Source: an uncultured virus (IMG/VR IMGVR_UViG_3300030099_006786) (lineage: Duplodnaviria > Heunggongvirae > Uroviricota > Caudoviricetes). From it: 64,000 nucleotides of DNA. Positions 5,056 through 48,915 of this stretch are shown here, in pieces; position 1 is the stretch's first letter; the number at the start of each line of letters is the position of its first letter. The stretch lies in the IMG/VR virus record IMGVR_UViG_3300030099_006786. One strand, written 5' to 3'. The notes beneath the pieces are model-generated. The model had not been told where the DNA came from. It searched no databases and saw only the letters and a program-made list of their open reading frames with translations. A program made the position numbers and the translations under genes.

Positions 5056-5084
5056 AATGTATCACTCTTGATCTACCTTGTCAA
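5056..5084 (-). promoter_or_regulatory. sigma70-like promoter of the SSB gene, inside the 3' end of the upstream gene
   Basis: TTGACA (5084-5079), 17 nt spacer, TG-n-TACATT (5061-5056). Confidence 0.65.
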
Positions 5085-5922
5085 GAGTTTTTTGAATTGC
5101 GTTAGTGTGGGCAACGCAGAACCCAAAATCTTCATCGTATGGAGATTCGTAAATCGCATACGTTATATTTTTAAAAGCATTTTTCGGTTTTTGTTTTAAC
5201 TTTTCGATAATTCTTTGATGTAATCCGCCATCCTTTTCTAGTTTTTCCTGAGATATGCAGAAATAATAACACACGTCCCGGCTCATGTCAAGATCAAAAA
5301 ACCATTTTTCTTCAACTTTGTTGGTGTCAAGTCTACCTAGAGAGCGTATTCTTTGTACGTCAGAAGGCTTACTTAGGTTGCCAATAATAGGCTGTGTGTG
5401 GTCAAACAAATTCTTGTAATGCACACTATAATAAATAGTCTGGTTAATAGTTTCAAAGTATTTTTTAATTGGTACATTTCCTATTGTTTCTTCTAAGATC
5501 GGATTACTGAAAATTGTTATTGAGTTAATCAAACCCGAACGTGCATATTCCTGTAAGATACCAAAAACTGCTCTTTCCTGAAGTCGAGAATCACCTATTA
5601 ATAATTCAGTATCTGGTCTAATATAGAATAAATCTATTTTAGTGTGTTTAATTTGTTCTAAAATCCCCAGTGTCATCACTGCGCTTTTGCTAGAGCCACA
5701 AACAAATGCCTGCACATTGTTGCTAATTCCTTTGAAGAACTTTGACAGCTTAGGAATGTTTTTTTCGTAATCCTCTATTTCATCATATTTTTTAAGCTTA
5801 TATTGGCCACCAGACGTCTTTGAAAACTGATTAGACAATTGATAAAGTTTGTATTCCTTATTGCCAGCAAACTGACCAACGATATTTGAACCAGCAGTCC
5901 CTATTCCAACTAATGATATCAA
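5062..5922 (-). CDS. Divergent tubulin/FtsZ-fold protein with degenerate GTPase motifs
   Basis: N-terminal T1 loop LVGIGTAGSNI. The GGGTG(S/T)G signature position reads CGSSKSA. T5-like YIRP and T6-like IFSN present. TTG start overlaps the polymerase stop codon. Confidence 0.7.
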   Translation of the reverse strand: MISLVGIGTAGSNIVGQFAGNKEYKLYQLSNQFSKTSGGQYKLKKYDEIEDYEKNIPKLSKFFKGISNNVQAFVCGSSKSAVMTLGILEQIKHTKIDLFYIRPDTELLIGDSRLQERAVFGILQEYARSGLINSITIFSNPILEETIGNVPIKKYFETINQTIYYSVHYKNLFDHTQPIIGNLSKPSDVQRIRSLGRLDTNKVEEKWFFDLDMSRDVCYYFCISQEKLEKDGGLHQRIIEKLKQKPKNAFKNITYAIYESPYDEDFGFCVAHTNAIQKTLDKVDQE

Positions 5923-7106
5923 AGCTTAAGCCCTCGAAGTTCTAAATAATTTTGACCAGCACCCAAATTGCACACAAAATTACCAAGTTTTGTTTTTTCA
6001 AATATTTCTTTAATTTCAGGCACCAATTCCCTATCCTCATTACTCAAATCAATAACAATCTCATCATGAACAATGTGAGATATAAAGCTTTTTTTATCTG
6101 ATAGAAATTTATCGATTTCTATTGCGCGTTCTATTACAATATCCGAAGTTGTACTTTGTATGATGTAGTTAAATGCTCGACGTGCATCAATTTTGATTTT
6201 TCGATCAAATGGCGTATTAATGTAGTCGCCATCATACCAATCGTCAAGTACTTTTTCTCGATTATAATAATTTGTTGATATAATTCTTGACTCTGGATTA
6301 TAAAGCCACGAAAAGAATAGCGTTTTAGCTTCTTCTCTGTAAATATCTGAGCGCTTAATTACATTATCCATATTCCATTCATGAATATCACCGGATGGCT
6401 GTTCTTGGCCACTTAGACCAAGAAGTGTTCTAATTTCTGCACCATTATAATCAAGTGACAAAAACCAATCATTAGTTGGTTTAATAAGTTTTCTATATTC
6501 TTTTTTCATGGTTAAAATTGGAAATGTATCCGGTCTGGTTGTGAACCTACCTGTTGCTGTTCCAAAAATATTATAATCAACATGTGGTGATGTAGCTAAA
6601 ATCTTTTGAACATTGTTGCGATTTATTGAATTAACAAATAAGTGCCTACAATCTTCATTATTAATCAATAAATTTTGAAACTTGATCTTATGGACAAGCT
6701 TGTAAGCAGCGTCTAAGTGATCATAATTTTTGGGTTTTTCAAAATTCTCAAATACATGCCTTGTAATTTTGTTTCTAATCTCACAAAATTCTAATAGGAA
6801 ATCGTGGGGAACAAGATCGAAAAAACAAAAATTTCTCAGATCTACTTTACCAATTTTAAAAGACTTAATAAATGCACGGAATTTTTTTTGAGCCGTGTCT
6901 AATTCTTCTCTAAGATGCTCTGGGCAAACTTCGGCCAATGACTTACCACCACTATATAGCCATGCATATTCGATACTATCGTCGGAAATTGAACCCGTAA
7001 ACTTCCATGTCCTTGTAAGGCCTTCAGGAATATCATCAAAGTTCAACTTACCAGACGTATATACGCCCACACATTCTGTTTTGTCATCTAATGTTTGAAA
7101 ATACAC
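5919..7106 (-). CDS. polA: Compact family A DNA polymerase (palm/fingers), no recognisable 3'-5' exonuclease
   Basis: TATGRFT, motif A SLDYNGAEIR, motif B REEAKTLFFSWLY, AFNYIIQST, motif C IVHDEIV. Confidence 0.88.
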   Translation of the reverse strand: MYFQTLDDKTECVGVYTSGKLNFDDIPEGLTRTWKFTGSISDDSIEYAWLYSGGKSLAEVCPEHLREELDTAQKKFRAFIKSFKIGKVDLRNFCFFDLVPHDFLLEFCEIRNKITRHVFENFEKPKNYDHLDAAYKLVHKIKFQNLLINNEDCRHLFVNSINRNNVQKILATSPHVDYNIFGTATGRFTTRPDTFPILTMKKEYRKLIKPTNDWFLSLDYNGAEIRTLLGLSGQEQPSGDIHEWNMDNVIKRSDIYREEAKTLFFSWLYNPESRIISTNYYNREKVLDDWYDGDYINTPFDRKIKIDARRAFNYIIQSTTSDIVIERAIEIDKFLSDKKSFISHIVHDEIVIDLSNEDRELVPEIKEIFEKTKLGNFVCNLGAGQNYLELRGLKL

Positions 7107-7121
7107 TGGTGCCTCAACTAA

Positions 7122-7150
7122 ATTATATCATTTCTTACGCTGATTGTCAA
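7122..7150 (-). promoter_or_regulatory. Consensus sigma70 promoter of the polA-tubulin operon
   Basis: Perfect TTGACA (7150-7145), 17 nt spacer, TG-a-TATAAT (7127-7122). Confidence 0.85.
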
Positions 7151-8396
7151 GAAAAGTTTTCTTAATATCGTTTAAGGTTCCTTTACCACGGATACCTTTA
7201 AATTTTTCATCAACAATAGAAGAAATTTTGTTATGTCTTTCAAATTTTGTTTGTTTCAATTTTAGAATTTCATTCATTTCTTCTTTTAAAACTTTCATTT
7301 CTCGTTTACCAACAAAATTTTGATTTTGTAAATTTTTCAACTCAATGTATTTTTTTAAAAAATAATCAGTACCATAATTTTGATAAACCTTTGTCTCGTC
7401 AAGTTTTTCTAAATTATATTTTTTAGTTAAAACAATATCACCCCGCTGAAGTGGTCGTGCTGTTAAATTTTTTCTATCAACGTATTGTGCATACGCATTT
7501 AATGTAAAATCAATAAATTCTTGAAAATCATTAGTGTGTGCCATTCTACAATAATTATTAAAAAAATCTGCAGGGCCATTTATGTTGTAATTTGCCATAT
7601 ATTTTCTCATCGTTGGTGAACTTAAGTCTGCTACTAAGCGCCATGGTGCGTTTTTGTCTACTGAAAACCCCACTTTCATCGCCACGTTCAAATAATAATC
7701 GAAATTAGGATTCTGATAAAATAAAAGATCGATTGGGTTATCTTTTGAAAAATCTCCCTCTGCTAATTCAATAACAAGTCCCGAAGCACGAATCGGTATA
7801 AACTTGTTCTTTACCATTTCAGGCTTTGTAAATGGTGTTTCTGACGAGAATTGCTCTACATAAAATAAAAAATTGTTCATAAAAACATGAAAACTGCTAA
7901 GGTTTTGATTAGTGTATTCTTCCATTTCAAAAACAAAATCAATAAATGGCTTATTATAAACTACTTGTCTAGCAGTATTTTTAATATCTTCAAAGCTTGC
8001 ATAGCCTTTATACGGCGTTGGTGTAGAAAGATATGGATCATCTAATAATATTTTACCGTTTTGTCTAGCAGCCTTAAAATATTTTTCCATATCAGAAAAA
8101 GCATCTGCTACAAAATTTACAACAAATATTTGACCTATTTCATTGAATGAGCCAGCTTTTTTTAATATATTGTCGTTTTCACTTGGATCTAACACGACAG
8201 CCATCCCATTCAAATCAATTTTTCCATACATTGAATTTTCAGCAAATCTAAAGTCTTTTATACATTTTGCAAATCTAGAATTTTCTGCATTTAATTCTGA
8301 TCTATTTTTAACTTGAGCGTCAATATTGACTTTAAAATTAAGCCGATTTAAAAACCCTTCAAACGTTCCGAGACTATTTTTTCCTTTAAAACTCAT
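7128..8396 (-). CDS. Hypothetical protein
   Basis: 422 aa ORF abutting the upstream gene; motif GFSVDKNAPWRLVADL; no recognised domain. Confidence 0.7.
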   Translation of the reverse strand: MSFKGKNSLGTFEGFLNRLNFKVNIDAQVKNRSELNAENSRFAKCIKDFRFAENSMYGKIDLNGMAVVLDPSENDNILKKAGSFNEIGQIFVVNFVADAFSDMEKYFKAARQNGKILLDDPYLSTPTPYKGYASFEDIKNTARQVVYNKPFIDFVFEMEEYTNQNLSSFHVFMNNFLFYVEQFSSETPFTKPEMVKNKFIPIRASGLVIELAEGDFSKDNPIDLLFYQNPNFDYYLNVAMKVGFSVDKNAPWRLVADLSSPTMRKYMANYNINGPADFFNNYCRMAHTNDFQEFIDFTLNAYAQYVDRKNLTARPLQRGDIVLTKKYNLEKLDETKVYQNYGTDYFLKKYIELKNLQNQNFVGKREMKVLKEEMNEILKLKQTKFERHNKISSIVDEKFKGIRGKGTLNDIKKTFLDNQRKK

Positions 8397-11300
8397 TATT
8401 TTGAACCGAAATCCTTAACTTTATCATGTAAAATATTTGCAAATGCTTCAGAAACAGGAATTTCTGGGTATTCTTCTCCTAATCTAGCTCTATTAGGATC
8501 AAGACCAGTTGTACCTGCACCGAAAACCTGACCCTCAAAACCAAGATCTTCAAATGCTTTTTGGATTGCATCTTTAGAACTATTATCTTCTTTTGAGCGC
8601 AAATTACAATTATCCGCAGGGGTAGTTGGGGCATTTGCCGGCTTTCTAGCAAGGGCATCATTTAAAGTATCAATTGTGCCGTGCGATGTCCATTTAGCGG
8701 TCAGTGTAGTCCTAAATTCACCCGGGCCTATCGTATTTTTAGCGTGCGTTATTAAATGATAGCCCCCAAAACCTAGCATATACGATAATGAAGTTCTATC
8801 CGAAATATTACCAAGTGCCAAATCAATACATCTGGAGTCCACAAAACATATAGAGCCGGGAAAAATACTAGGCAGTCCAAATGTTTCTATTGTTATTTTG
8901 TATGGCTCACGCAATTGTAAAAGTTTGTTTTTCTTATAATTTGTTTCAGCAGCAAAAAATCTAGCCTCGCGAACATATGGCTGATCATCTTTTTCAAATG
9001 AAACTTTTTGAACCATCCCACTATTGACACCAAAATTAAATTGATAAAAGCCTTTGTCTAAGTTTTCTTTAGTAGGCTTGGGAAAATTCTCACATGGATC
9101 AGATTTAAGCGCCGCAGTTCTTGGATAAAATATAAAATAATTAAACCAATTTTCGGCTGCTTGCTTGGAGTAAAACTGCATTGTTTCTTCGCTTTCGCCG
9201 GGGCCATGTTTACTATTTTGTGTTATTCTTGTAATGCTCTTACATTCGGCGCCGGGAATAAATAAATTGTAATTTAATTTTTTGTTTTTTTGTGCACATT
9301 CACCTATTGCATCCACCGGTGCGTATACTTGTGCTCTTTGAATAGAAGTGGTATCAGTTAAAGTATGAGATGTACCAGACTCATCAGTATAATTTTTAAA
9401 TTTGCTTAATGTTGTACTTAATAAATCTCTTAGAAACAATCCAAAACTATACTCAGGGAATTTTTTATTTCCTTGATATTTTGTAATATGTTTAACAAAC
9501 CAAATTGAGAAAGTTTCAACTGAAATTGGTATATCGCCCATATTAACAATTAAATCATATACAGGATCTTCAGGATTTTGTGTCATTCTAATATCCGTAA
9601 GGACGATTCTAGTATTTTTAAAAGCTGTTTGTGCAGCAGTACCCGTTCCTTTCTTTTCCTGATTTTTTGAATAATTTTCATTAACAAGGCCTTTAACAAT
9701 TTTAATTAAATCACTAACATAAAAAAATGTCACTACTCGCTTGCCTTCAGAAATAATAGATTGTGGAGTGACATTTCTGGAAAATATATCTTCAACACAT
9801 TTTTCTTTATCAGCATGCTCACACTTGCTTGCAGCTTTTCTAGCATTATCAATAATCTCAGAAATAACGCTGTATGTATTTGGCTCTGACGGAGGATACA
9901 AATCTAAATCAGTAGTTACAATTTTTCTAGATATTAAATCTTCGACTCTAGGATATGTTGTATAAATTTTATTTTCGGCTCGTAATTCAGTTAAAATTTT
10001 TGAAAAAACTAGTTGTTGAATTTCTTTACCAAACCAATCAAGCTCGGAAGTTAAATTTTTTCTAAGGTTCTCCGCGGTTTGACCAGATTCACAATTAGCA
10101 AGAACCGTTTTTAAAACATTTCGAGCCTTATGATAAGTTATTTCTAATTCAGGGCTTGAGAAAATATTGGCTCCTTCAGAGTGTGCCACAGCTTCTAGAT
10201 AACCTCTGTATGTTATTACTAAGTTAACAGACCCATCTTCTTGGATATCAAAACGATGGTCAATCAACGTTGCTATGATTGGAAGAACAGTTGTGTCAAT
10301 TGCTAATCGTTTATTATTTGGTATAATGTCACCAGCACCGTTAATTGGGTCAGAATATGCGTAACCGATCAAAAATTTAATTCTATAGTATTCTGGATCA
10401 TATTCTGATTGACTTATACTTGGGTCGGTGCTGCTGGCTAATCTTCGGGGTCTTGTAATTAAATCAGCATAAGAAAATGTATTTACACCGGGCTTATTTT
10501 TACCGGCAGAAAATTCTGGGCCCGGTATACCAATGTGCCTGTTTCTTAAAATATCTGAAAAACTTTGAAAAAATAATGTTAAAGTCAGTGATATATCTTT
10601 TGTATCATTCGCCGGGTTTGTACCTTGATAAGACCACTCTAAACTTCTAATACCGACTGAATTTCCACGATTGTAATTTTCTATAAAATTTCCTGAATTA
10701 ATTTCTCTTGATTTATCGTTTTCGATATTGTTAATCGCATTACTTTCAAAAGGAATCTCTTGTTCAAAATCGTTACCTATCTTAAACAGTCGCACCATCG
10801 GAACCAGCGATGACACTTCTGCCGGTGTTAAATCTAAAAGCTTTTGTTGATTTTCGTTATATAATAATTGACTAACTCCACACTCAGGCTTTCCTTCAAT
10901 TGGATAAACACCTCGAAAAGTTTGTTCAACATCTGTTTCTGAAGATGCATGTTCGTCGTATGCTATTTCTCTTCGTTTTTCTTTAATCGCGGCGAATAAT
11001 GGGGTATTTATTGTAAGATAATCTCTAATGCTTGTCCTGATATTGGCTGCTGATTGTTTTTGTAATTCAGTAGCCGATTCTTTCCCTGCTGGTGGTGTTC
11101 GAGGTCTAATCGGTGCGGAGCCGCCGGCTGCAGCTGTCGCAGCTTCTATAATATCCTTTAAGTCATTTAAATTAGTGGCATTTTGAGCCTCGGAAATAGC
11201 TAACTGTTCATCGTAATCAAGCTCGCCATCATCACGGAGGCCGTCTAGTGTTGCAACAACTTCAGCATAAAGTTTTAATAACTCAAAATAATTTTGATAT

Positions 11301-12286
11301 AACTCCATATTTTTAATTTGTTCAACTGCTTTATTGGCTGACGTGACACCCACATTTGTACCAAAAGAATAAATTTGCTGGCCCTTGGCATCGGTTAAGC
11401 CAGATGTAAAACTTGCACTACTGTAATCAATCAAGCTGTCAAAATCGACAGAGGTGTCTACAGGCCTTGCAAAGCCCAAAGGTCCAACTAAAATAACATT
11501 TTTTCTATCTAAAACAAAATTAATTTTTGATTCAATATCATCAACGATAAAATCCTTAGATCTTGCGCCAGTCACAAGACCCTCAAAAGTGCCGCCCACA
11601 CCATATACTTCTTCAATGTATGCCGCGGCGCTGTTTTCTTCTAGCTGTCCATACATAAGCGCCTGACCAAGACCACCCCATATACTTTTATATAAATTAA
11701 AAATTTTATAAGTATCTTTCAAGAAATTAGCAACAACAGTTTTTTGTGCAGGATCAAAACCATTAGGCAAATTGCCTCCTGCTGGCGGAAGATAAGCGTC
11801 AATAGTAGATTCTGCAGCTTTTTTTGCAACTTCATCTTCTGATTCAGTACCAGTCTTTTGTCCAGCTACTGTACCAGCTTCGGAGTGAGCCACGGTTTCA
11901 AGACCCTCTTTAATGAGAATATTAATAATTCTTTCAATATCGCCACCACTGTATAATGCATTAAGCACACGTTTGCTTGTATTCCATTTTCCGGCGTCGG
12001 TGGATTGACTAGCCGCCCTCACAAAGGCGCCTGCCTTGGCAATTGGAATTGCACCGGGGCTGACCGGATATACAATTGAATTTTTGATCCCCCGGTCGGC
12101 GGTTAATTTAATTGTGCCGCCGGCGCCTCTCGCAAGGTAGATCGGACTTGCAGCAAAGCTTTGGTTACCAATTGAGCTATCTACAGGTTTTTTAAGTTTA
12201 TCTCTAATTCCAGTTTTTGGAAATCCACTTTCAGTTATTCTTTGAATTAGCCCTTCATCTAATTTTATAACACCGCTATCTGCCAT
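8396..12286 (-). CDS. Large baseplate hub / tail-associated protein (putative)
   Basis: 1296 aa; follows the LysM/gp53-like gene. C-terminal ITIETFGLPSIFPG...GGYHLITHAKNTIGPGEFRTTLTAKW resembles gp27/gp44/VgrG-type hub ends. Confidence 0.55.
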   Translation of the reverse strand: MADSGVIKLDEGLIQRITESGFPKTGIRDKLKKPVDSSIGNQSFAASPIYLARGAGGTIKLTADRGIKNSIVYPVSPGAIPIAKAGAFVRAASQSTDAGKWNTSKRVLNALYSGGDIERIINILIKEGLETVAHSEAGTVAGQKTGTESEDEVAKKAAESTIDAYLPPAGGNLPNGFDPAQKTVVANFLKDTYKIFNLYKSIWGGLGQALMYGQLEENSAAAYIEEVYGVGGTFEGLVTGARSKDFIVDDIESKINFVLDRKNVILVGPLGFARPVDTSVDFDSLIDYSSASFTSGLTDAKGQQIYSFGTNVGVTSANKAVEQIKNMELYQNYFELLKLYAEVVATLDGLRDDGELDYDEQLAISEAQNATNLNDLKDIIEAATAAAGGSAPIRPRTPPAGKESATELQKQSAANIRTSIRDYLTINTPLFAAIKEKRREIAYDEHASSETDVEQTFRGVYPIEGKPECGVSQLLYNENQQKLLDLTPAEVSSLVPMVRLFKIGNDFEQEIPFESNAINNIENDKSREINSGNFIENYNRGNSVGIRSLEWSYQGTNPANDTKDISLTLTLFFQSFSDILRNRHIGIPGPEFSAGKNKPGVNTFSYADLITRPRRLASSTDPSISQSEYDPEYYRIKFLIGYAYSDPINGAGDIIPNNKRLAIDTTVLPIIATLIDHRFDIQEDGSVNLVITYRGYLEAVAHSEGANIFSSPELEITYHKARNVLKTVLANCESGQTAENLRKNLTSELDWFGKEIQQLVFSKILTELRAENKIYTTYPRVEDLISRKIVTTDLDLYPPSEPNTYSVISEIIDNARKAASKCEHADKEKCVEDIFSRNVTPQSIISEGKRVVTFFYVSDLIKIVKGLVNENYSKNQEKKGTGTAAQTAFKNTRIVLTDIRMTQNPEDPVYDLIVNMGDIPISVETFSIWFVKHITKYQGNKKFPEYSFGLFLRDLLSTTLSKFKNYTDESGTSHTLTDTTSIQRAQVYAPVDAIGECAQKNKKLNYNLFIPGAECKSITRITQNSKHGPGESEETMQFYSKQAAENWFNYFIFYPRTAALKSDPCENFPKPTKENLDKGFYQFNFGVNSGMVQKVSFEKDDQPYVREARFFAAETNYKKNKLLQLREPYKITIETFGLPSIFPGSICFVDSRCIDLALGNISDRTSLSYMLGFGGYHLITHAKNTIGPGEFRTTLTAKWTSHGTIDTLNDALARKPANAPTTPADNCNLRSKEDNSSKDAIQKAFEDLGFEGQVFGAGTTGLDPNRARLGEEYPEIPVSEAFANILHDKVKDFGSK

Positions 12287-12287
12287 T

Positions 12288-12629: not shown

Positions 12630-12639
12630 TTGTCAATTC

Positions 12640-13662: not shown

Positions 13663-13686
13663 TATTATATTCCTTTAACATAACTA

Positions 13687-16416: not shown

Positions 16417-16450
16417 AGGTCTGCCCTCGTTATATTAATTAGTTCACAAT

Positions 16451-16478
16451 AAAAAAGACCGTAATTTCTTACGGTCTT
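16451..16478 (-). terminator. Rho-independent terminator after the tail chaperone genes
   Basis: AAGACCGTAA-GAAA-TTACGGTCTT followed by TTTTATT. Confidence 0.85.
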
Positions 16479-16486
16479 AGTAAATA

Positions 16487-35782: not shown

Positions 35783-36380
35783 TTAAAACCTCATTTAAAA
35801 GCCTATTGATTTTATCAGCTTTTGTAAAAATATTTGGGGCACTTAAATCTTTTGCCTCTTTCATCATAAAAGCGCCCGGGGTCGATGGTTCAGAAACAAA
35901 GTCAAAGCAAATAAGTTGAAAATCATCTTCAACCATTGTAGCACCATTATTTTCAGATACAGATCCCATACCTCTTGAAGATATACCTAATTTAACGCCA
36001 GATTCTACTAGTGACCTAAGTATATTTCCAGATGGTGTATTGAGAACCTGTACCTTACCCATTACATCGGTGCCTTCAGTCCATATATCAGTTACCATGT
36101 GAGATGCATTTTTAAGATTAATTACCGAATCATCTGGATGATCAAGCTCACCAAGTGCTCTTCTTTCTTTTACGAGCTTCTTGTATGTTTCTACTTCCCT
36201 CATTAGTACTTTAGCCGGGTAGACTCTACCGTTTCCATTTCTAGTGTCAGCTTTTTGCATAATTCCAGAAAGAATCATGCCGCCTTCAGAAACAAATTTC
36301 TTTTCAGCTTCTGTTAATAAGTCTTGGCAAACACCGCCATCGCATAGTTCGTAGTATTCTCTTAAAAGTACTTGACCCAT
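35769..36380 (-). CDS. Prohead protease (T4 gp21-like)
   Basis: NGNGRVYP, ALGELDHP, ASHMVT, GISSRGMGS, DFVSEPSTPGA. Confidence 0.95.
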   Translation of the reverse strand: MGQVLLREYYELCDGGVCQDLLTEAEKKFVSEGGMILSGIMQKADTRNGNGRVYPAKVLMREVETYKKLVKERRALGELDHPDDSVINLKNASHMVTDIWTEGTDVMGKVQVLNTPSGNILRSLVESGVKLGISSRGMGSVSENNGATMVEDDFQLICFDFVSEPSTPGAFMMKEAKDLSAPNIFTKADKINRLLNEVLNEEK

Positions 36381-36755: not shown

Positions 36756-36767
36756 TTTAACTCCTAA

Positions 36768-37846: not shown

Positions 37847-38660
37847 CTGAGTAAATTTCCTTAACTAATTTTTGAGTCTTGAGGACCGTCAATAGTAATG
37901 ACTCGCTTACAACTTCTTTAGAATAATTATCAAGTTTGGAAATGACACTATCAGTTTTATTAATCATAGATGCATCCGATTTAATTTCATCAGTTGTTTT
38001 TGCTTCTTGTAATTTAACTTTAAGTCTTCCAATTTCTTCGTTTAAGAAAATCTTCAATTCGAGAGAATTGTCGACAAACGAAGTAATATAATGCATCAAT
38101 AGCTCTTTTTGTTCTTTTAATAAACTGTCGCCATACTTTTCATTGAACTTCTTAACAAACGAATTGTAAACAATATTATCAATTGGCACCATTTCCTCTA
38201 CTTCTTCTTCGGCGGTTGACATAAAATCAGTAAGTTGAGATTCAAGCATAATTTGTTGTTTAGGATTGGAGCCATTAAACATTTGAAATATAGTTGCTAA
38301 AGTTTTGTAATTGGGAACAAAGTTATTGAATATATCAGGAGATAAATCTTTATTAATATCGTTTATCAAGCTTGTTTGTTGTTTAAATAAATTAGCTGGG
38401 TCGATAAGCATCTTAGATAATTTTGCTTCTTTAATAATCTTTTCACTTGTTTCAGAATCTAGGCCACGTGTCTCATATAACGAGCGGTAGCAATCTAAAT
38501 CTCTTTTTAATTCAGAAAATGGTGCAAAGTAGTTTTTTATAATCTTAACAATCTTTTGTTTTTTTTCTAAATCATTTTTTACAATTGCTTCTGTGGCTTC
38601 TTTGATAAGTGCTTCATAAACAAACGCGGTATTTCTTTTCTTATTATGTTTAATTTTCAT
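37830..38660 (-). CDS. Conserved hypothetical head-region protein
   Basis: KHNKKRNTAFVYEAL, VPNYKTLATI, KFNEKY; overlaps the portal gene. Confidence 0.65.
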   Translation of the reverse strand: MKIKHNKKRNTAFVYEALIKEATEAIVKNDLEKKQKIVKIIKNYFAPFSELKRDLDCYRSLYETRGLDSETSEKIIKEAKLSKMLIDPANLFKQQTSLINDINKDLSPDIFNNFVPNYKTLATIFQMFNGSNPKQQIMLESQLTDFMSTAEEEVEEMVPIDNIVYNSFVKKFNEKYGDSLLKEQKELLMHYITSFVDNSLELKIFLNEEIGRLKVKLQEAKTTDEIKSDASMINKTDSVISKLDNYSKEVVSESLLLTVLKTQKLVKEIYSDVSSS

Positions 38661-40662: not shown

Positions 40663-40670
40663 TTAAAATC

Positions 40671-42254
40671 TCACTTTATAATCCACATGAATTCTTCATA
40701 TGTTTTTTTAGCTTCACTTATTTTATCAAGAATGTTATCTTTTTTGTAGCCTTCTTGACCTTTAATTTGTGTATTCATTGTTGTTCTACTTGTGTAAATT
40801 GCATCAACAAAAGCTTTCTGATAATTTAAATCTCTAGCGTTTGATTGTATTGCTGTGTCCCTAACCCAACATGCTATTGCCAATGACATTATAAGGTCAT
40901 CGTTATAGCCCTTCATGGCTTGAGGCTTACCGTTTCTCCAAATAAAAGTTTTCATCTCGTTAATTGTACGAGAAGAATATACCGTAATTAGTTTATTTCT
41001 GATAAACTCTTCTAATTTCGCAACGATAAGGGGTCTAGTCTTCATTGTAGTAGTAAAACCCGGCACTGCTGAGTTTGTGTATTCTGCTTGATACTGTTCA
41101 ATGTATTGGTGTGTTGATTTCACCGAGAAATACAAATTTGGATATGCGTGCTCAGTTAGCTTGTCTAGTACTGAATAACCAATGTTATTATTTTCGACCA
41201 CAAGCATAGCATTACCAAACTCTCTGCCAACTTGATTTAACATATTGGCATACATATCTAAAGTTGGCTTACCTTGGTATTCGCCTACTATCTGAAGTGT
41301 TTCAAGTTTGATTATGTGAAATGCTGAGTTATCGGCACCATCACCTCTTGCAACATCAGCAACCATCAAATAATTGCATTCAGGATCAAATTCTTCCCAA
41401 ATCCAAAAATTGCGGTCAAAACCAGTTCTGTATTTTGGTTCTGCCACGTTCTTCAATAGCCATTCCATATCTTCAGGATCAATAACAGTTTCGCCTGAAG
41501 TATTGAAGTTGCACTCAAGCTCTTGAGCAATTTGTCTTTTAGACATGTTTTTAGTTTCTTTTTGATACCATTCTTCATCGCGATCAGGGTGAACGTCCCA
41601 TGCTAAAGTTGTTATATTAAAATTATTACCGCCCGATTCTGCATCTGCGCAGGTTTTATGAAACCAGTTACCAACTCCATTTGGAGTTGACAGCGCAATA
41701 CAGCGACCACCTGTAGACAGCGTAGGATAAAGACCAGTCCACAACTCTTCTAAGCCCTCAATATGTGCAGCCTCATCTAATACTAAAAGTGACAGTGCTT
41801 CAGAACGACCAGCATCGCCCGAAGTAGAAGCTGCTTTGATAGATGAGCCGTTAGACAATTCAAAAGAAGTTCTGTTATCGACTGAGATTTCTGCAATCTT
41901 AATCCAGTCTGGTAAATTTCTCATGATGCTCTTGACTTTTTTAACCAAGTTGCCTGCTGTGGCAAACTTTGTAGCCATAACAAGTATGGACTTATCACGA
42001 TGAAAAAGCATCATCCACACAACATAGCCAGCAGTTATTGTGGATATTCCAAGCTGTCTTGCTTTTAATATAACATTAAATCGATAATCATTAAAATCTT
42101 TCAATAAATCATCTTGGAATTCATAAGTATCAAATGGAATTAGTCCATGCATTGGGTGTGATATTCTTGCATAGTTTTTAAGAAAATATGCGGGATCTCT
42201 CCCGCATTTTAATATTTCTTTAACTTGCTGTTTTTTATCTAATTGAAAACTCAT
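40671..42254 (-). CDS. Terminase large subunit (gp17-like)
   Basis: KARQLGIST (Walker A), LVLDEAA (Walker B), STPNG, ADVARGDGAD, VENN, DDLIMS. Confidence 0.96.
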   Translation of the reverse strand: MSFQLDKKQQVKEILKCGRDPAYFLKNYARISHPMHGLIPFDTYEFQDDLLKDFNDYRFNVILKARQLGISTITAGYVVWMMLFHRDKSILVMATKFATAGNLVKKVKSIMRNLPDWIKIAEISVDNRTSFELSNGSSIKAASTSGDAGRSEALSLLVLDEAAHIEGLEELWTGLYPTLSTGGRCIALSTPNGVGNWFHKTCADAESGGNNFNITTLAWDVHPDRDEEWYQKETKNMSKRQIAQELECNFNTSGETVIDPEDMEWLLKNVAEPKYRTGFDRNFWIWEEFDPECNYLMVADVARGDGADNSAFHIIKLETLQIVGEYQGKPTLDMYANMLNQVGREFGNAMLVVENNNIGYSVLDKLTEHAYPNLYFSVKSTHQYIEQYQAEYTNSAVPGFTTTMKTRPLIVAKLEEFIRNKLITVYSSRTINEMKTFIWRNGKPQAMKGYNDDLIMSLAIACWVRDTAIQSNARDLNYQKAFVDAIYTSRTTMNTQIKGQEGYKKDNILDKISEAKKTYEEFMWIIK

Positions 42255-42265
42255 ACATTTTTAAA

Positions 42266-42805: not shown

Positions 42806-42806
42806 T

Positions 42807-43376
42807 TTAGTGTTCCTTTAATTTTTCATATTCTAAATAGTGCTTTACAGACTCAATATAGTCTGCTGCCTTAGTAATCTTTGCTTGTACCCAGCCTTCA
42901 AGCTCATCTCCTTCGTGTATTAATTCTTGTAATACTGTGGAGTATTTATGTAGTCTGTATAGTTGGGCCTTAGCCATAGAAGCTTCATGATCATCAGCAC
43001 AGTGTGATTGCATATGTGGCTGTTGATCACCGCATGCTTCCTCTATTTGTTCATTTTGTGGCTGTTTTTGTCTTTGCGATACAGTTGCTTTTTGTAATAA
43101 AACGATGACTTTTTGAAGTAAAGCACGATTTCTCATTAAATCAACACCCGGTGTAGCAGCCAAATCTGAAAGAAACTTTTCAAATTGGTCGACTAAGTTC
43201 TTCTCAGTATTTGTTAATTCATCACCAGCAGATTTAATTCTTTTTACTGCATCAGAAGTGCGCTGACTGGTAGACTTAGAGCCAGTCTTAAGAACGGGAG
43301 AGCCGGATGCATCAACTTCTTGCTCAGATATTACATTAAGAATTAACTCTTTAATTTGATTTTTTGAAATTTTCAT
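42807..43376 (-). CDS. Hypothetical protein with 'MKI.K..IKE.I' leader
   Basis: MKISKNQIKELI; C-terminal DHEASMAKAQL...LEGWVQAKITKAADYIESVKHYLEYE. Confidence 0.65.
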   Translation of the reverse strand: MKISKNQIKELILNVISEQEVDASGSPVLKTGSKSTSQRTSDAVKRIKSAGDELTNTEKNLVDQFEKFLSDLAATPGVDLMRNRALLQKVIVLLQKATVSQRQKQPQNEQIEEACGDQQPHMQSHCADDHEASMAKAQLYRLHKYSTVLQELIHEGDELEGWVQAKITKAADYIESVKHYLEYEKLKEH

Positions 43377-43749
43377 CTGGTCGCCATCCTTCGTGCCATC
43401 TTTTTTCTCTACCTTCGATAAATTTAATATAACAAGAATTGCAAGTATTAAATTTTATCTGGCAAACATCGTCCATTGATTTCTTTGGGAAAGCCCCGCA
43501 GACAGAACAACTTTTTAAAGATTCTCTATTAAGTAGTTTTTTTGATACCTTTATACCATTTAAATCAACTTTCTCATAGCTGTCTAAATTTTTGTTTTGT
43601 TTGTTGTAAAAATCTTTCATCTCTTCAAGATAAAGTTTTTCTTTTTCTTCATTCCAATTTGACTTAGGGTTCGCGACAGCTTCTTCTCCATATTTTTCAG
43701 CAATTGCCTTTTCATAAGCTGCCAATTTATTGAGCTTGTCTTTACTCAT
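43351..43749 (-). CDS. Hypothetical protein with putative Zn finger
   Basis: CSVC...CNSC...WHEGWRP; start ATG 43749 overlaps the upstream stop (ATGA). Confidence 0.65.
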   Translation of the reverse strand: MSKDKLNKLAAYEKAIAEKYGEEAVANPKSNWNEEKEKLYLEEMKDFYNKQNKNLDSYEKVDLNGIKVSKKLLNRESLKSCSVCGAFPKKSMDDVCQIKFNTCNSCYIKFIEGREKRWHEGWRPDENFKKSN

Positions 43750-44294
43750 ACACCCCACCAAACATCTTCACCTCGACGGTAATTTTTTGTTTGCATAAAT
43801 GTTTCTTTGTTTACAAGATGGTCATCCCTAAATCTACAATAGTTATTGGGCTGCAAAGCAAACTGGCCATCGTCCAAAGATATCAAATTGAGCGGCTTGT
43901 GTTCTTGAGGATATCTATCAAACCCATTGTTCCAGTCTATCATAATACCAGTGTGCCTACCTTTCCATCCAAATCTAAATAATTCTACTTCCAGTCCCTC
44001 AAGATATTTAGCCCCATAAGCTTCAATATCAGGGCCCATAGCTGCCCATGGACACAAATCTAAATAAGGTTTTTCTTCCCAAGTCTCAGGCCCATGAAAA
44101 TCTGACATAGCGTGAAGGGGTAATCCAGACCAGTGAGCACCAGTTTCGAGTAATACATGAGCCATGGGTATCTGACCTTCTCTAGAGTGAATTCCGTGCC
44201 AAAGTGCGTATGTGTAGCCGCTAGGCATATTGGGTCCTAAGTAAGAATTCTTAACCCAAACATAAAAATGATGTGGTAAATTAGCGTGTTTCAT
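43746..44294 (-). CDS. Hypothetical phage protein
   Basis: HANLPHH, LLETGAHWSGLPLHA, GQFALQPNNY. Confidence 0.65.
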   Translation of the reverse strand: MKHANLPHHFYVWVKNSYLGPNMPSGYTYALWHGIHSREGQIPMAHVLLETGAHWSGLPLHAMSDFHGPETWEEKPYLDLCPWAAMGPDIEAYGAKYLEGLEVELFRFGWKGRHTGIMIDWNNGFDRYPQEHKPLNLISLDDGQFALQPNNYCRFRDDHLVNKETFMQTKNYRRGEDVWWGV

Positions 44295-44710
44295 TTTGAT
44301 AGTTCCTTATCTAGTGCATAGTAACCTAGACCACCTAGTATAACGCCGCCTGTAAAATACAGCCACTTATATCTAGGCGACGTTTTTCTTAATGCACCAG
44401 CAAGCAGGTCTATTTCTTTATCTTTTTGTATTATAAACAAATCGTATTCATCTGTTAAGGCCCTGTGTTCTATCTTCAGTCCTTCGAGTTCAAATCGATG
44501 TTTTTCTTCCAATTTCTTTAATTCGTAATCAACCCTTATTTGACATGCATACGATGCGATGTCATAATCGGATAGTATAGTTGATATCGAAAATTCATCA
44601 AACAGAACACCCTCAAAAGGTGCCGGTTGTTTATATTCTAAAAAAGTAAACTTGGCCGACTCAGTTGCATTGGCCGTTAAAGAAAACATTAATAAAAGTT
44701 TAAGGAACAT
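44291..44710 (-). CDS. Exported coiled-coil protein with C-terminal hydrophobic anchor (spanin-like candidate)
   Basis: Signal-like MFLKLLLMFSLTANA, coiled coil, C-terminal WLYFTGGVILGGLGYYAL. Confidence 0.45.
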   Translation of the reverse strand: MFLKLLLMFSLTANATESAKFTFLEYKQPAPFEGVLFDEFSISTILSDYDIASYACQIRVDYELKKLEEKHRFELEGLKIEHRALTDEYDLFIIQKDKEIDLLAGALRKTSPRYKWLYFTGGVILGGLGYYALDKELSK

Positions 44711-45083
44711 ACTGGATCCCAAAAGTGTCTTCTATATCTTTAATTAGTTGTTCTCGATCGCTATTAAATTTGTTCCTATATTTGCCTTTTTTATCTTCTC
44801 TTAGTTCCTCAATCATCTGTAATGCATCTTCGTAGTCTTCTTCAATTACAGCGAGAGATTCCAAGTGGCTTTCTGCGAGCAATCTTTGTTCCTCTATTTG
44901 TTGTTTATGTATTTCTTTGAGGCCATCAATTTGAGCTTTGTGGGAGTCAACTTGTGTTTGATATGCTTTCTGCATAGATAGGTAATCGTGTCGATTTTTT
45001 GCAGCGATCATTATAAAAAAAACTACTAGTAAAATAGATTTCCAATTTTTAAGTACAAAATTAATTATTTTGCCTTTAATCAT
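44700..45083 (-). CDS. N-terminally anchored coiled-coil protein (i-spanin/Rz-like candidate)
   Basis: TM segment WKSILLVVFFIMIAA followed by a long coiled coil; overlaps both neighbours. Confidence 0.45.
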   Translation of the reverse strand: MIKGKIINFVLKNWKSILLVVFFIMIAAKNRHDYLSMQKAYQTQVDSHKAQIDGLKEIHKQQIEEQRLLAESHLESLAVIEEDYEDALQMIEELREDKKGKYRNKFNSDREQLIKDIEDTFGIQYVP

Positions 45084-45273
45084 TGTGCCCTCGCAATCTT
45101 GCAATACCATCAATTACAGTTTGACCACCAATATAAATTGCAGAAATAATTACCCAATCTTCACTAGTAACTTGGCCTGCCAATGTCATTGCAGTTGCTG
45201 TGAGCCAAACCATCAATTTTCTTGATGTTAATTTAGCTAACCATGTGTCTAAGAATGCTTGTGCTTTTTCCAT
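45076..45273 (-). CDS. Holin-like small membrane protein
   Basis: 65 aa, two hydrophobic segments, KLTSRKLMVW...YIGGQTVID, basic C-terminus. Confidence 0.55.
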   Translation of the reverse strand: MEKAQAFLDTWLAKLTSRKLMVWLTATAMTLAGQVTSEDWVIISAIYIGGQTVIDGIARLRGHND

Positions 45274-45281
45274 TATATAAC

Positions 45282-45935
45282 CTATTCGATCTCACCCATA
45301 TCTCTTAAAACCTTGGCAACATAAGCATTTGCACTTTCAGAATCTAATCCTTTAGTTCTTCGAATGCACTTTGCCTTGCCTTTAAATGTTTCATACTTAC
45401 CTTTCGCGAAACAATTTTCTTTTTTTTTAGCCTCGGTAAGATTTTTTAATTCGTCTTTAATTATACGAATTAATTCTTCTTTAAACCCAACCTGTGGTCG
45501 ACCTTCAGCGCCGGGTGTGTACAAAGTTTCTGGCGGTTCCTCATCCTGCATTTCGACACCGGGAAGCTTTTCAAATACAGCTTGAAAAATATCTGCTACT
45601 TCTTCAGGTGGCATGCCCTGTACTAGTGCAGCAATTTGATCCTCCAAAGGTGGACCGGCACGATCTTGGAAGCCGCTAACATCTCGCTCTGGAGCGTCAT
45701 CTGACGGGATGTCCGAAGGTCCAAATGGCATTGTATCATCGGCTGCTTGTTTTTTAGACGCCGGGACTTTTGGAGGTTTTGGAATTTCACGATCATCATC
45801 GTCCATCCAATCTGGCTTAGGTCCACCTTTAATATATGCTAGTAAATCATCAGCCTTATCTTCAGATAAATTATATTCACTAAAAACTTCTTTGATAATA
45901 AGTCTATACATCTTTTTTTCATTAATCTTCATCAT
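45282..45935 (-). CDS. Hypothetical protein with IIKE leader motifs
   Basis: Start ATG 45935 (SD GGAG); YRLIIKEVFSE and internal ELIRIIKDELKNLTE. Confidence 0.6.
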   Translation of the reverse strand: MMKINEKKMYRLIIKEVFSEYNLSEDKADDLLAYIKGGPKPDWMDDDDREIPKPPKVPASKKQAADDTMPFGPSDIPSDDAPERDVSGFQDRAGPPLEDQIAALVQGMPPEEVADIFQAVFEKLPGVEMQDEEPPETLYTPGAEGRPQVGFKEELIRIIKDELKNLTEAKKKENCFAKGKYETFKGKAKCIRRTKGLDSESANAYVAKVLRDMGEIE

Positions 45936-46179
45936 TGCTCTCCGATACATCTGATTTTCCAACACTTACAGTTGGGGCCTTTCGCAATCTTCCAAGTGCT
46001 TTCTGTGACAATCCAATAGACAAAGCATCCTCACCGGTGATTGCAGACGCCAAATAATCAATACTAACATCTAAATTATCAATTTTATTAGACAATTTTT
46101 CAATTGCGTTTCTTAATGCTGGATCAGAAGATATCTCTTCTTTAATAATTTCTAAAAGTCTTTGTTTAGTTATTTTCAT
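45922..46179 (-). CDS. Hypothetical protein with 'MKITK.RL.EIIKEE' leader
   Basis: MKITKQRLLEIIKEEI. Confidence 0.65.
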   Translation of the reverse strand: MKITKQRLLEIIKEEISSDPALRNAIEKLSNKIDNLDVSIDYLASAITGEDALSIGLSQKALGRLRKAPTVSVGKSDVSESNDED

Positions 46180-46538
46180 TTTATTATCCCTGCTGATTTT
46201 AGTGAACGCTGAAACTTAGCATTGATTGCACTATCAGAATTTACAAAATCTTTAATAGAGTCTAGAACACTTTGCTTGTTAGCTTCACCGGTGTACCACT
46301 CTTCAAATTTTGATACAGCATCAGTACTATCCAGAATTTTCTGACCAATACCTAAATCAGTACAAACTTCAATAAACAATTCTTGCACTGATAATTGTTC
46401 TTCGGGCTCGTCGCAACACTCACCTTCACAACAATCATCATCACACTCTTCATTGTCACAGCAATCTTGTGGTGCATCACAACAAGGCTCTGTGTTAGGG
46501 GTTGTAAACCAATTCCAAAATCTTCTTAATAAATTCAT
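46176..46538 (-). CDS. Cys/Asp/Glu-rich hypothetical protein
   Basis: PCCDAPQDCCDNEECDDDCCEGECCDEPEE. Confidence 0.6.
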   Translation of the reverse strand: MNLLRRFWNWFTTPNTEPCCDAPQDCCDNEECDDDCCEGECCDEPEEQLSVQELFIEVCTDLGIGQKILDSTDAVSKFEEWYTGEANKQSVLDSIKDFVNSDSAINAKFQRSLKSAGIIK

Positions 46539-47380
46539 TGTTCATTATTATCCTTTAATGCTTGATGTATGGCCTGAATGACTCCATCATCAAGGTATCT
46601 AAATGCGGGAGGATCTTTTTGAGCATCCTCCGCTGCAGCCATAATTAATTTAGCAAGCTTTCTTCTTGCTTGACGAACAGTTAAACTGCCATAGCCGGGA
46701 ATTAAAATTTCGCTTCCCATATCTTCTTTCATAGAAGAACGCTTTGCAAGTTCTTGGTACATTTCATCTGAATCGTTATGTACTGTTACATCGCCTCTCT
46801 TATGTCTAACTATGATTACGTCTTTTCCATCACTAGCCTGTTCTATACTAGCTTTAACACCAAATTTATCAGCTAAATCTTGCACTGATTCTCCGTCAAG
46901 ATCATTAGGGCTCATACGTTCTTCGCCAGTATCAATATCAGCAACAGCTCGGCCGGGCTCGTACATTGCTTCATTTTGGCTTTTTAAATCTTGCTTAGCA
47001 CTATCCATTTCATCCTTGTGACGCTTAAGCCAGCGCTCAGCTTCTTCGTCAGAAAGATTAGTAGTTAAGCTTTTTAATGTTTCCTTGGCGCTTTTTCCTG
47101 TTTTCATCATCTTTTTAACGACATGATGGGCTGAATGTGGTACAGAGCCTTCATTTAGTGAAGCCCTTTCTTGCGCTAATCCAAGTTGTTCGATAGCCAA
47201 ATCAACAATATTGTGTGTTTCTTTTTGAATTCTGGCTCTGTCCTTGGGTTCACCCGGATTCATACCCATTGTCTTCATCTGTCCAACTATAAAATCAACA
47301 ACAGCTTCACGAAAGCGGCTTTCACTAGGATTGCCGCGCTCGTTTAAGTAGTTGTTCCAATTTTCAAATAGTTTTTTCAC
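46535..47380 (-). CDS. Hypothetical protein with 'MKKLFENW' leader
   Basis: MKKLFENWNNYLNE; internal SLNE, QNE, SMKE. Confidence 0.65.
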   Translation of the reverse strand: MKKLFENWNNYLNERGNPSESRFREAVVDFIVGQMKTMGMNPGEPKDRARIQKETHNIVDLAIEQLGLAQERASLNEGSVPHSAHHVVKKMMKTGKSAKETLKSLTTNLSDEEAERWLKRHKDEMDSAKQDLKSQNEAMYEPGRAVADIDTGEERMSPNDLDGESVQDLADKFGVKASIEQASDGKDVIIVRHKRGDVTVHNDSDEMYQELAKRSSMKEDMGSEILIPGYGSLTVRQARRKLAKLIMAAAEDAQKDPPAFRYLDDGVIQAIHQALKDNNEQ

Positions 47381-47382
47381 TT

Positions 47383-47763
47383 TTAGCGACCTTTTTGTTG
47401 TGGAATCATTCCTAAATCTTGCATAGCATAGATAGAAGAGGTGTCTTTACGATACATACACTTTACAAAGTCGCCCTCTAAATCACCGCGGAGTGCTTCG
47501 TCAGAGCAAGCTTTAATTTTTTGCTGCGTCTCTTTAGGATCGCTATTGTATGGTGCCGAAGTTAAAGTCTTGTAAAGCTCTTCATATTTTTCAGGTACTC
47601 CACCGGGGTCAGGAGTCATTCTTCCCATAACATCTGCTGTGCTTGGTATATCCTTGGGCATATTGGTAGTGAAACTACCTTGCTCTTCAAGCTCGTCTCT
47701 ATATGTTGTCTCGTTTAAAAAGTAACGAGGGTCAATTCTTTTTGTGTTTTTACGTCTAGCCAT
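47383..47763 (-). CDS. Hypothetical protein
   Basis: MARRKNTKRIDPRYFLNE; SD AGGAG. Confidence 0.6.
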   Translation of the reverse strand: MARRKNTKRIDPRYFLNETTYRDELEEQGSFTTNMPKDIPSTADVMGRMTPDPGGVPEKYEELYKTLTSAPYNSDPKETQQKIKACSDEALRGDLEGDFVKCMYRKDTSSIYAMQDLGMIPQQKGR

Positions 47764-47775
47764 TATAATCTCCTA

Positions 47776-48915
47776 TTATGTTGCTAATCCATTCATACTT
47801 AGTATCGCAATCAAACCGGGCACATTCTTTCTGACATAAACGCCAGAGAAAAGTGTCTCGCATCGACCGCCGACATAAGCGATTGCCGACTCAATATTCT
47901 TGCTGACCTTGGGGTCTGCCACCATCTCTTCTGACACAACCAACACTAATGAGCCTGCAGCGGCCTTACCCTTGGGTGGAGGGCATGCGGAACGATTCAT
48001 GCAATTGTGAAGGATCACCGATCCAAGCTTTCCAGTATTTGGATCCTTTATCATAGTCGAGCCCATAAAGGCTCTGCCGTTATTGCCCAAGCATGTTTCC
48101 AGATCTTTACTATCAAAAGATTGGATCGGTGAATCCTCTGTAGAGAGTTTTAAAACTTGGGCTAACGATTTTGCAAATTGAGTGTTTGCGACAGGGTACA
48201 TGCCAAGCATACCAATTCTGCCGCGAAGTAAGCGTGTGGCACGTTCATTATCTAAAATGATGTGCGGGTGACGAGATACGTCATTGGCCAATGTCAGTGC
48301 ATTGCGAGCGATTGTAGGGTTAAGATTTTCTTGTGCTGTTGGCCAAGAAACTACATAAACGACTTTACCGCTTGACTGAACAGAGCGCATGTAACGCTCA
48401 AAGACAGGATGGAGAGCGGTAACAGAACTACCGGTGCCACCACCACCACCAGCAAAGACGAATAACCAATCCACTTTACCGAGTTTGATGCGCAAAGCAT
48501 CTTCAACAATTGCACCATTTTGACTTAATACCTCTTTTCCATAGTCTACGTTTTTTCCAATTCCATCAGAATCGGGTATAAGGACAACGTGATCCTCTTC
48601 AACATTTTTAGGAATGTCTTTGCCTGTTGAGTTGACAAGCAATGTTTTATTGAAACCAAGCTCAATAAATGCATTTACCATTTTGTTGCCTCCACCGCCG
48701 ACACCAACAAAACCGACATTAATTGAAGAGGGAGCCGTATTTTCTGGGAGTAAATCTTCATCAGAGTATTCCATCTGTAATCCAAAATCCTCAACCATTC
48801 CGAAATCTTCAGCGTCTACCTGTTCGTGGTAGTGGTCTTTCTCCTGATTGAAGGAGGGTGGTGGTTCCGCGGGAGGCAGAAAATCAAATTCATTATTGTC
48901 ATTATCATTAGACAT
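47776..48915 (-). CDS. Tubulin/FtsZ-family GTPase (PhuZ/TubZ/CetZ-like) with acidic N-terminal extension
   Basis: T1 GVGGGGNK, T2 NSTGKD, T3 GIGKN, T4 signature AGGGGGTGS, T6 LDNE, T7 FDSKDL. Confidence 0.92.
   Translation of the reverse strand: MSNDNDNNEFDFLPPAEPPPSFNQEKDHYHEQVDAEDFGMVEDFGLQMEYSDEDLLPENTAPSSINVGFVGVGGGGNKMVNAFIELGFNKTLLVNSTGKDIPKNVEEDHVVLIPDSDGIGKNVDYGKEVLSQNGAIVEDALRIKLGKVDWLFVFAGGGGGTGSSVTALHPVFERYMRSVQSSGKVVYVVSWPTAQENLNPTIARNALTLANDVSRHPHIILDNERATRLLRGRIGMLGMYPVANTQFAKSLAQVLKLSTEDSPIQSFDSKDLETCLGNNGRAFMGSTMIKDPNTGKLGSVILHNCMNRSACPPPKGKAAAGSLVLVVSEEMVADPKVSKNIESAIAYVGGRCETLFSGVYVRKNVPGLIAILSMNGLAT

Follow-up and report, generated by a model that had tools for sequence, protein, structure and literature searches.

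This analysis concerns a 64,000-nucleotide stretch of DNA from an uncultured virus (IMG/VR record IMGVR_UViG_3300030099_006786), called the window in the following, and two genes in it that belong to the tubulin/FtsZ superfamily. The original prediction had read them as two very different homologues in one T4-like phage, an intact GTPase and an apparently dead paralogue. Both open reading frames (ORFs) are located on the minus strand. Gene A (5062..5922) encodes a minimal tubulin/FtsZ-fold protein of 286 amino acids (aa), assigned from the ORF, an AlphaFold2 (AF2) model, fold matches and a profile alignment (hhalign) to the B family. Gene B (47776..48915) encodes an FtsZ/TubZ/CetZ-like GTPase of 379 aa, recognised by the Pfam family PF00091, by matches in the PDB and by its motifs. 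The motifs that had been quoted are all there (GVGGGGNK, AGGGGGTGS and DSKD in B; GIGTAGSNI and CGSSKSA in A), and the description of two very different members of the superfamily in one window, one with intact and one with degenerate GTPase loops, is borne out.

B passes the gathering score of PF00091 (Tubulin) narrowly, with 35.3 bits against a cut-off of 33 (E 1.8e-8), and in addition carries the T1 (GVGGGGNK), T4 (AGGGGGTGS) and T7 (FDSKD) loops of the superfamily. All 33 B relatives share the T1 and T4 glycines and the two T7 aspartates, D268 and D271. At E <= 1 the protein matches 56 distinct PDB sequences, the best being FtsZ (6.6e-11), CetZ 3zid (3.5e-9) and the TubZ of phage c-st, 4xcq (0.0028). 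However, the FtsZ equivalog family of NCBIfam, TIGR00065, is missed by a wide margin (50.6 bits against a cut-off of 295.2). The AF2 model of B has a pLDDT of 81, with residues 1-54 predicted below 50 and the core near 90. It superimposes on CetZ2 with a Z-score of 31.1 (rmsd 2.5 A, 292 aligned residues), on TubZ with 30.9 (rmsd 2.5 A, 310 aligned) and on FtsZ with about 27-28, so that the three are close to tied. B is a diverged FtsZ/TubZ/CetZ-like protein with intact GTPase loops.

FtsZ has a C-terminal linker followed by a conserved peptide that binds membrane anchors. B has neither, as the final beta-strand of its model extends to residue 377 of 379, and the relatives end 2-5 residues after this strand. 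The tail of B is found at the other end of the protein, where residues 1-65 (codons 48721..48915, minus strand) contain 18 D+E and 1 K+R and are predicted to be disordered from pLDDT and composition. All 33 relatives have such an acidic N-terminal tail, 36-92 aa long, and no C-terminal one, and within the tail D37 and F38 are invariant. The core of the window's B has a pI of 8.8.

For the A protein no match was found in Pfam, PHROGs or NCBIfam, and the PDB sequences gave a match at chance level only; missing the gathering score of PF00091 as well, the window protein is without any match. Among 115 A relatives PF00091 is touched weakly by 6 (best E 5.6e-4) and the Rossmann family TrkA_N by 9, and the A-family profile searched against the PDB returned only the Rossmann protein KtrA (E 0.0029) and no tubulin. 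The AF2 model of A, built from the alignment of the 115 relatives, reaches a pLDDT of 96.1 and a pTM of 0.92. Its top Foldseek matches are FtsZ, TubZ and CetZ only (best E 3.3e-12, TMq 0.62-0.73), in alignments of ~315 columns with 10-16% identity. With VIA-align the model was superimposed on CetZ 3zid_B (Z 24.1, rmsd 3.2 A, 262 aligned residues), TubZ 2xka_C (Z 22.8, rmsd 3.2 A, 280 aligned), FtsZ 2r6r (Z 21.9, rmsd 3.7 A, 271 aligned) and beta-tubulin 9n9g_b (Z 21.5, rmsd 3.6 A, 273 aligned), and the eukaryotic, gamma and Asgard tubulins follow at Z about 21. These matches span residues 1-286, with 262-283 of the 286 residues aligned, and the Rossmann-like nucleotide-binding domain, the H7 core helix and the C-terminal activation domain can all be identified. 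A reading of A as a plain Rossmann or TrkA-like protein was rejected, as the model aligns over both domains to tubulin-family chains.

A further line of evidence comes from the two families themselves. In hhalign the A family matches the B family with a probability of 89% (E 2e-6, 176 columns), which is well beyond chance. The register places GIGTAGSN of A on GVGGGGNK of B and CGSSKSA on the glycine signature of B, with T1, T4, T6 and H7 aligned. Among the viral structures of BFVD the A model matches the predicted PhuZ of phage Noxifer (E 7.4e-7), and no close member of the A family was found there, the best match being a 452-aa phage 'FtsZ' (TMq 0.71, 11% identity). Profile and structure searches had been proposed as the check on the first reading, and both proteins come out of them as members of the superfamily, A through its model and B through PF00091. 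A is predicted with very high confidence to have a complete two-domain tubulin/FtsZ fold.

The GTPase loops of A were then compared column by column over the 115 relatives. The window's A has a T1-like loop GIGTAG(SNI) with the pattern GxGxxG, whose glycines are well kept in the family (G6 in 97, G8 in 114 and G11 in 92 of 115). Conservation extends to G76 (110/115), to P103 (100/115) and D/E104 (101/115) in T5, to N140 in T6 (96/115) and to N160 (95/115), H168 (90/115) and N171 (90/115) in H7. The position of T3 (43-58) is shorter and free of glycine, whereas B has DGIGKN there, and it carries a family-specific ExYE motif (E50 in 106, Y52 in 99 and E53 in 102 of 115). The tubulin signature of T4 is [SAG]GGTG[SA]G. 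The A family has the consensus G-x-G-x-[IV]-S-G at T4, which keeps about 4 of the 7 signature positions (G78 63/115, S81 74/115, G82 62/115) and has I or V at the fifth in 77/115. The window copy reads G-S-S-K-S-A-V (within CGSSKSA), and the seven window positions aligned to the signature are S-K-S-A-V-M-T, which does not conform to it.

In tubulin-like polymers the acidic pair of T7 (NxDxxD in FtsZ) activates hydrolysis in the neighbouring subunit. The T7 zone of the window's A, HTQPIIGNLSKPSDVQRI, contains a single acidic residue, D188, and no DxxD, as had been noted before. Across the family position 185 is acidic in 45/115 and position 188 in 65/115, the pattern [DE]xx[DE] occurs in 46/115, and R191 is present in 99/115. 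In the predicted structure the H8 helix that should follow T7 is missing. The strongest motif of the family, QEYARSG (124-130; Q124 in 113, R128 in 114 and S129 in 110 of 115), has no counterpart in FtsZ. Nucleotide binding by A may thus survive, because the T1 glycines, P103, N140 and N160 are conserved, with a nucleotide probably still in the pocket. The parts that sense GTP and trans-activate, on the other hand, are probably no longer under the usual constraint. Calling A apparently dead is therefore too strong. Likewise, the word paralogue goes too far if it is taken to imply a duplication within the phage.

With these loops in view it can be asked whether A forms an unconventional but still dynamic filament, similar to TubZ or PhuZ, that moves or centres replicating phage DNA by an altered catalytic chemistry. 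There is precedent in RepX/TubZ of pXO1, a tubulin relative needed for maintenance of the replicon, and A retains the whole two-domain fold, the T1 glycines and the pocket residues, in addition to the acidic residue at 188 and R191 in the numbers given above. We regard this as unlikely, since A lacks a glycine T3 loop to sense the gamma-phosphate, has a bulky I or V in T4 where the signature has glycine, is modelled without H8 and, as described below, evolves far faster than the filament-like B.

The A family is large. Among 1565 candidates 1041 proteins belong to it at E <= 0.001. At 50% identity it comprises at least 525 representative clusters, of which 152 are found at E <= 1e-30, nearly all of 270-300 aa. 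It spans about 600 IMG/VR contigs.

Gene A lies in a replication module. It follows a gene for a family-A DNA polymerase-like protein of 395 aa (5919..7106, minus strand; PF00476 with 54.7 bits, phrog_17; C-terminal palm region only), and its TTG start overlaps the TGA stop of this gene in a TTGA junction. The gene for a gp32-type single-strand DNA-binding protein (SSB) is located 57 nt downstream of A (4234..5004, minus strand; PF08804, phrog_1192). The arrangement was followed in 127 IMG/VR loci selected through A, with 5 contigs represented twice and A identities of 32-100%. Of the 108 loci with room for it, 99 have the polymerase-like gene no more than 300 nt upstream of A; in 8 of the 9 remaining loci an insertion separates the two and the gene lies further upstream. 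On the other side of A, 112 of 113 loci have the gp32 gene at a distance of no more than 400 nt downstream. The search was also turned round to start from gp32, with 80 loci kept from 486 relatives, 13 of them too short to judge A. All 67 loci with room have A within 500 nt upstream of gp32. Seven partial records without A are also without gp32 and hence no counter-example, and 9 of 9 records with a completeness of 90% or more contain A. It belongs to the core genes of the lineage and is part of the replication module.

The family-A polymerase signal itself is limited to residues ~290-390 of the 395-aa protein (5919-7106). Just upstream of this gene there is a 422-aa ORF (7128-8396) that has no match in any family library and is syntenic in the relatives with 23-100% identity. 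Perhaps the polymerase is split, or it has diverged strongly.

Gene B is found in a very different setting. It is one of 7 ORFs in a variable slot of ~5 kb (45114..50152, minus strand), which is bordered upstream by the gene for a fused SbcD/SbcC-like nuclease (gp47/gp46-type; 50153..53260, minus strand; phrog_77 and phrog_100) and on the other side by conserved small genes that precede the large terminase gene (40671..42254, minus strand; phrog_2), used as the downstream anchor of this analysis. G027 is a related record of 172 kb that is 95% complete. There the homologues of 44700-45113, 44291-44722 and 43351-43761 come immediately after the SbcCD-like gene, the terminase gene comes next, and the roughly 5 kb that carry B in the window are absent. 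Among loci selected through SbcCD (the closest 80 of 489) the interval to the terminase is fully covered in 61; B is present in 22 of these and absent from 39. A profile search of whole records found A and B together in G002, G007, G010, G012, G013 and G042, all 100% complete, and A without B in G027 as well as in G037 and G038 (both 100% complete, with terminal repeats). A search of G027 and the partial record G025 with PF00091 gave no match, and the nearest record, G001, a fragment of 36.9 kb, does not contain B. Altogether B occurs in 6 of 9 records that are at least 90% complete; 5 of the 9 had been picked without reference to B, and 2 of these carry it. B is an accessory gene whose occurrence is restricted to a clade.

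The genes around B vary as well. In 25 B-carrying loci the upstream 276-aa ORF recurs in 6 and the 130-aa ORF directly upstream in none, and no conserved TubR-like DNA-binding partner is apparent beside B in these loci; centromere repeats were not searched for. Among the relatives (L220-L299) the SbcCD-terminase interval measures about 2.0 to 8.0 kb and contains differing small genes, which looks like a hot spot of gene exchange. Two ORFs flanking B, 49323-50153 and 46535-47380 (minus strand), are otherwise unrelated and share the leader MKKL[LF]ENWN.[FY]L; the former has a DGHHRW motif that recalls ParB/Srx folds, without a match in Pfam or NCBIfam. In the complete genome G042 (locus L229) B is 60% identical to the window's B and the terminase 85%, which suggests distinct sub-lineages of B or exchange between phages. 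A further tubulin of 380 aa is encoded in G044 (L300 6044-7186). It has T1 GSGQGGGR, T4 GAAGGTGGG and an acidic N-terminal tail, is matched by both the A- and the B-family profiles and lies in a different context, near ClpP-like and PhoH-like genes.

These distributions bear on the two-component cytoskeleton that had been proposed, in which the filament is made of B, with A as its cap, nucleator or co-polymerising subunit, comparable to alpha/beta-tubulin or BtubA/B. Both proteins have the same fold, and the T7 face is degenerate in A and intact in B, which resembles the relation of beta- to alpha-tubulin. Moreover, 6 of 6 B-carrying records that are at least 90% complete also have A. However, as A is a core gene present in all nine (near-)complete records, its presence beside B is uninformative, and A occurs without B in the three genomes named above and in the 39 slots that lack B. 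A distance of 42 kb separates the two genes, they belong to different modules, and their opposite rates of evolution are unusual for obligate polymer partners. The co-occurrence across relatives that an obligate pair calls for therefore fails, and we consider a two-component cytoskeleton very unlikely. A complex prediction of B (residues 60-379) with A scored 0.00 in two runs without controls and speaks neither for nor against binding.

The rates were compared with those of neighbouring genes in the same loci. The median identity of B to the window copy is 91.6%, compared with 82.5% for the terminase and 63.8% for SbcCD, and B is the more conserved protein in 18 of 19 loci when compared with the terminase and in 21 of 22 when compared with SbcCD. 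A behaves in the opposite way. Its median identity to the window is 53.8%, next to 56.6% for the polymerase-like protein and 74.4% for gp32, and it falls below gp32 in 98 of 99 loci. From these identities B appears to behave like a polymer that is constrained on many faces, and A does not.

Fast evolution and a varying charge, as A has, are expected of a protein that tracks host targets, and phages commonly block host division. A could accordingly be a decoy or capper of the host FtsZ, which docks with one face on the ends of protofilaments and stops assembly of the Z-ring during infection; the pocket residues of T1, T5, T6 and H7 are kept and T3, T4 and T7 have decayed, as such a role would allow. 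This is nevertheless quite improbable in our view. In relatives down to ~32% identity A keeps its place between the genes for the polymerase-like protein and the SSB, with translational coupling to the former, a placement that points to replication, and its most conserved motifs (ExYE, QEYARSG and R191) are specific to the family and not FtsZ-like.

On balance we lean towards a reading in which A and B are independent members of the tubulin/FtsZ superfamily with different jobs, A being a replication-linked scaffold or positioning protein that holds a nucleotide and is impaired as a GTPase. A would be expressed from the same message as the polymerase-like gene, beside the SSB gene. It would be a stripped-down tubulin fold that probably still holds its nucleotide and has lost the usual GTP switch, given the absence of T3 glycines, the degenerate T4 and the poor conservation of the T7 acids. 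Instead of assembling into a dynamic filament driven by GTP, A may then act together with the replisome or with replicating DNA as a static scaffold or a positioning protein. B, in turn, would most likely be an autonomous GTP-dependent filament, formed on its own. C-terminal tails have roles in FtsZ, TubZ and PhuZ, and the acidic N-terminal tail of B with its invariant D37 and F38 might take their place. An obligate two-part cytoskeleton is not supported, because A is core, B is accessory and A is found without B.

Several points weigh against this reading. Synteny and translational coupling suggest a role of A in replication and do not prove it, and nucleotide binding by A is something we infer from conserved residues. 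The acidic residue at 188 is kept in over half of the A family, so that some trans-activating function may survive. The fast evolution of A and its variable pI, 4.45-9.02 across the relatives, are also compatible with a protein directed at a host factor. As to B, its occurrence in 22 of 61 slots is not a population frequency, as the loci are the closest 80 of 489, and the completeness of the genomes without B is a CheckV estimate. A very divergent second tubulin could also evade the B profile, and G044 has a different one elsewhere.

The scaffold reading can be taken a step further. A may be the founder of a group of virus-only 'minimal tubulins' that are no longer cytoskeletal GTPases and have become built-in parts of the replisome or replication factory, for example an accessory of polymerase or SSB with a structural nucleotide. 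This extension is put forward tentatively, as a possibility that we would not yet favour. If true, it would be the first tubulin fold recruited to DNA replication itself, in a lineage abundant across the oceans.

The window has 38% G+C, and almost every long ORF is on the minus strand. PHROGs recognised T4-type structural and replication genes in it. The head genes are of the gp23, gp20 and gp21 type (phrog_138, 213 and 207), in agreement with the original prediction, with the major head protein at 25254-27095, the prohead protease at 35769-36380 and the portal at 38650-40662; tail sheath, tail tube and baseplate parts are also encoded. Replication and repair are represented by a UvsX-like recombinase, a primase, a RuvC-like resolvase and the fused nuclease. 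No GenBank phage has a terminase more than 47% identical to the one of the window, and the nearest cultured relatives by this protein are Flavobacterium phage immuto (47%) and Microcystis phage Mel-JY01 (44%). Near-identical and related IMG/VR contigs reach 172-204 kb, some with terminal repeats. Because of the T4-type genes, the distant terminase and the length of the related contigs, the lineage is one of uncultured marine T4-like myoviruses with genomes of about 170-205 kb. Of the 59 window ORFs scanned against PHROGs (8 + 51) none matched a PHROG annotated as phage-nucleus shell, as anticipated, and neither chimallin nor a multisubunit RNA polymerase, the companions of PhuZ in phage-nucleus systems, was recognised; this covers 64 kb of ~190 kb, and no dedicated chimallin profile was run on the complete relatives.

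Some further features of the window were recorded. The SbcD-like (gp47-type) and SbcC-like (gp46-type) parts are fused into one protein of 1035 aa (50153-53260), and the fusion is kept in 80 related loci with 51-73% identity. A ferredoxin-like auxiliary gene (43746-44294, phrog_3704) lies among the conserved small genes upstream of the terminase and was found in only 4 of 80 related loci (82-84% identity). Most large ORFs have no match in Pfam or PHROGs, e.g., those of the 1296-aa and 837-aa proteins (8396-12286, 59697-62210) and many others, and the lineage is very sparsely annotated.

Wherever taxa are known, the members of the atlas clusters of A are viral (100%), and tblastn of A and B against 50,697 GenBank phage records gave no match. 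Flavobacterium phage immuto, Microcystis phage Mel-JY01 and an uncultured 484-kb phage have neither A nor B; a single 11-bit match to A among these three (E 0.0135) was taken as noise. In 185,579 prokaryote species genomes 37 matches to one back-translated pattern of the A family were obtained, none encoding a relative, with a sensitivity limited by the single pattern. A 283-aa Nitrososphaerota 'Tubulin/FtsZ' cluster (atlas rank 24, score 0.88) was considered as a relative of A and not borne out by sequence: the A profile searched over 5 and then 201 Nitrososphaeria genomes gave marginal matches only, none better than E 4.9e-4 and all within ORFs of 326 to 741 aa.

No published description of the A or B family was found in the literature, supplements not covered. 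In the passages of PMC7824862 that were consulted tubulins are mentioned only for nucleus-forming or pseudolysogenic jumbo phages, and the abstract of PMC2875224 treats cellular FtsZ-like families in other gene contexts. A term search of PMC9871819 finds neither 'phage' nor 'virus' or 'viral', and the consulted passages of PMC4611503 and PMC6302109 mention neither family.

Widespread uncultured marine T4-like phages thus carry two further, undescribed kinds of tubulin. The A family, a minimal tubulin fold of ~280 aa, is locked into a polymerase-SSB operon. It illustrates the extent of decay that GTPase loops can undergo within an intact fold and points to a role of the fold outside the cytoskeleton. 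As B shows, an FtsZ-like protein under strong constraint, presumably a filament and with a putative regulatory tail at the N-terminus, is also kept by phages in which no nucleus shell can be recognised. Both proteins are small and soluble-looking and should be amenable to in vitro study.

The known phage tubulins are PhuZ of nucleus-forming jumbo phages and TubZ of plasmid-like prophages. PhuZ, the spindle tubulin of the jumbo phages, is phage-encoded like A and B, needs an acidic tail for proper assembly, and is matched, in its version from Noxifer, by the A model. Here, however, the head genes are T4-type, the genome measures about 190 kb and the window has no protein recognised as a nucleus shell. 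The tail of B is N-terminal, and A is about 30-60 residues shorter than the PhuZ-like matches (312-347 aa). Alpha/beta-tubulin and BtubA/B resemble the present case in having two diverged tubulin-fold proteins per genome, one with a weakened T7 face, but are adjacent or strictly co-inherited, which A and B are not.

Among the cellular proteins, FtsZ is closest to B by sequence and shares T1, T4 and the two T7 aspartates. B differs from it by the lack of a C-terminal linker and anchoring peptide, by the acidic N-terminal tail and by the failure of TIGR00065, and A has no sequence match to FtsZ. The archaeal cell-shape protein CetZ (3zid, 4b45) gives the best structural scores for both A and B and a good sequence match for B; these scores are within about 1-3 Z units of those of TubZ and FtsZ, too close to place A and B with one of the three, and CetZ is archaeal whereas A and B are viral. 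TubZ/RepX of type III plasmid and prophage partition (2xka, 4ei7, 4xcq) shares with A and B the two-domain fold and the residence on a mobile replicon, and with B the intact GTPase loops. A type III TubZRC system has a centromere and, next to TubZ, a conserved gene for the DNA-binding adaptor TubR; no such adaptor gene accompanies B in the loci studied. In difference to TubZ, neither A nor B has a C-terminal tail, that of B being N-terminal, and A, without the T3 glycines and the T4 signature, resides in the replication operon of a lytic phage.

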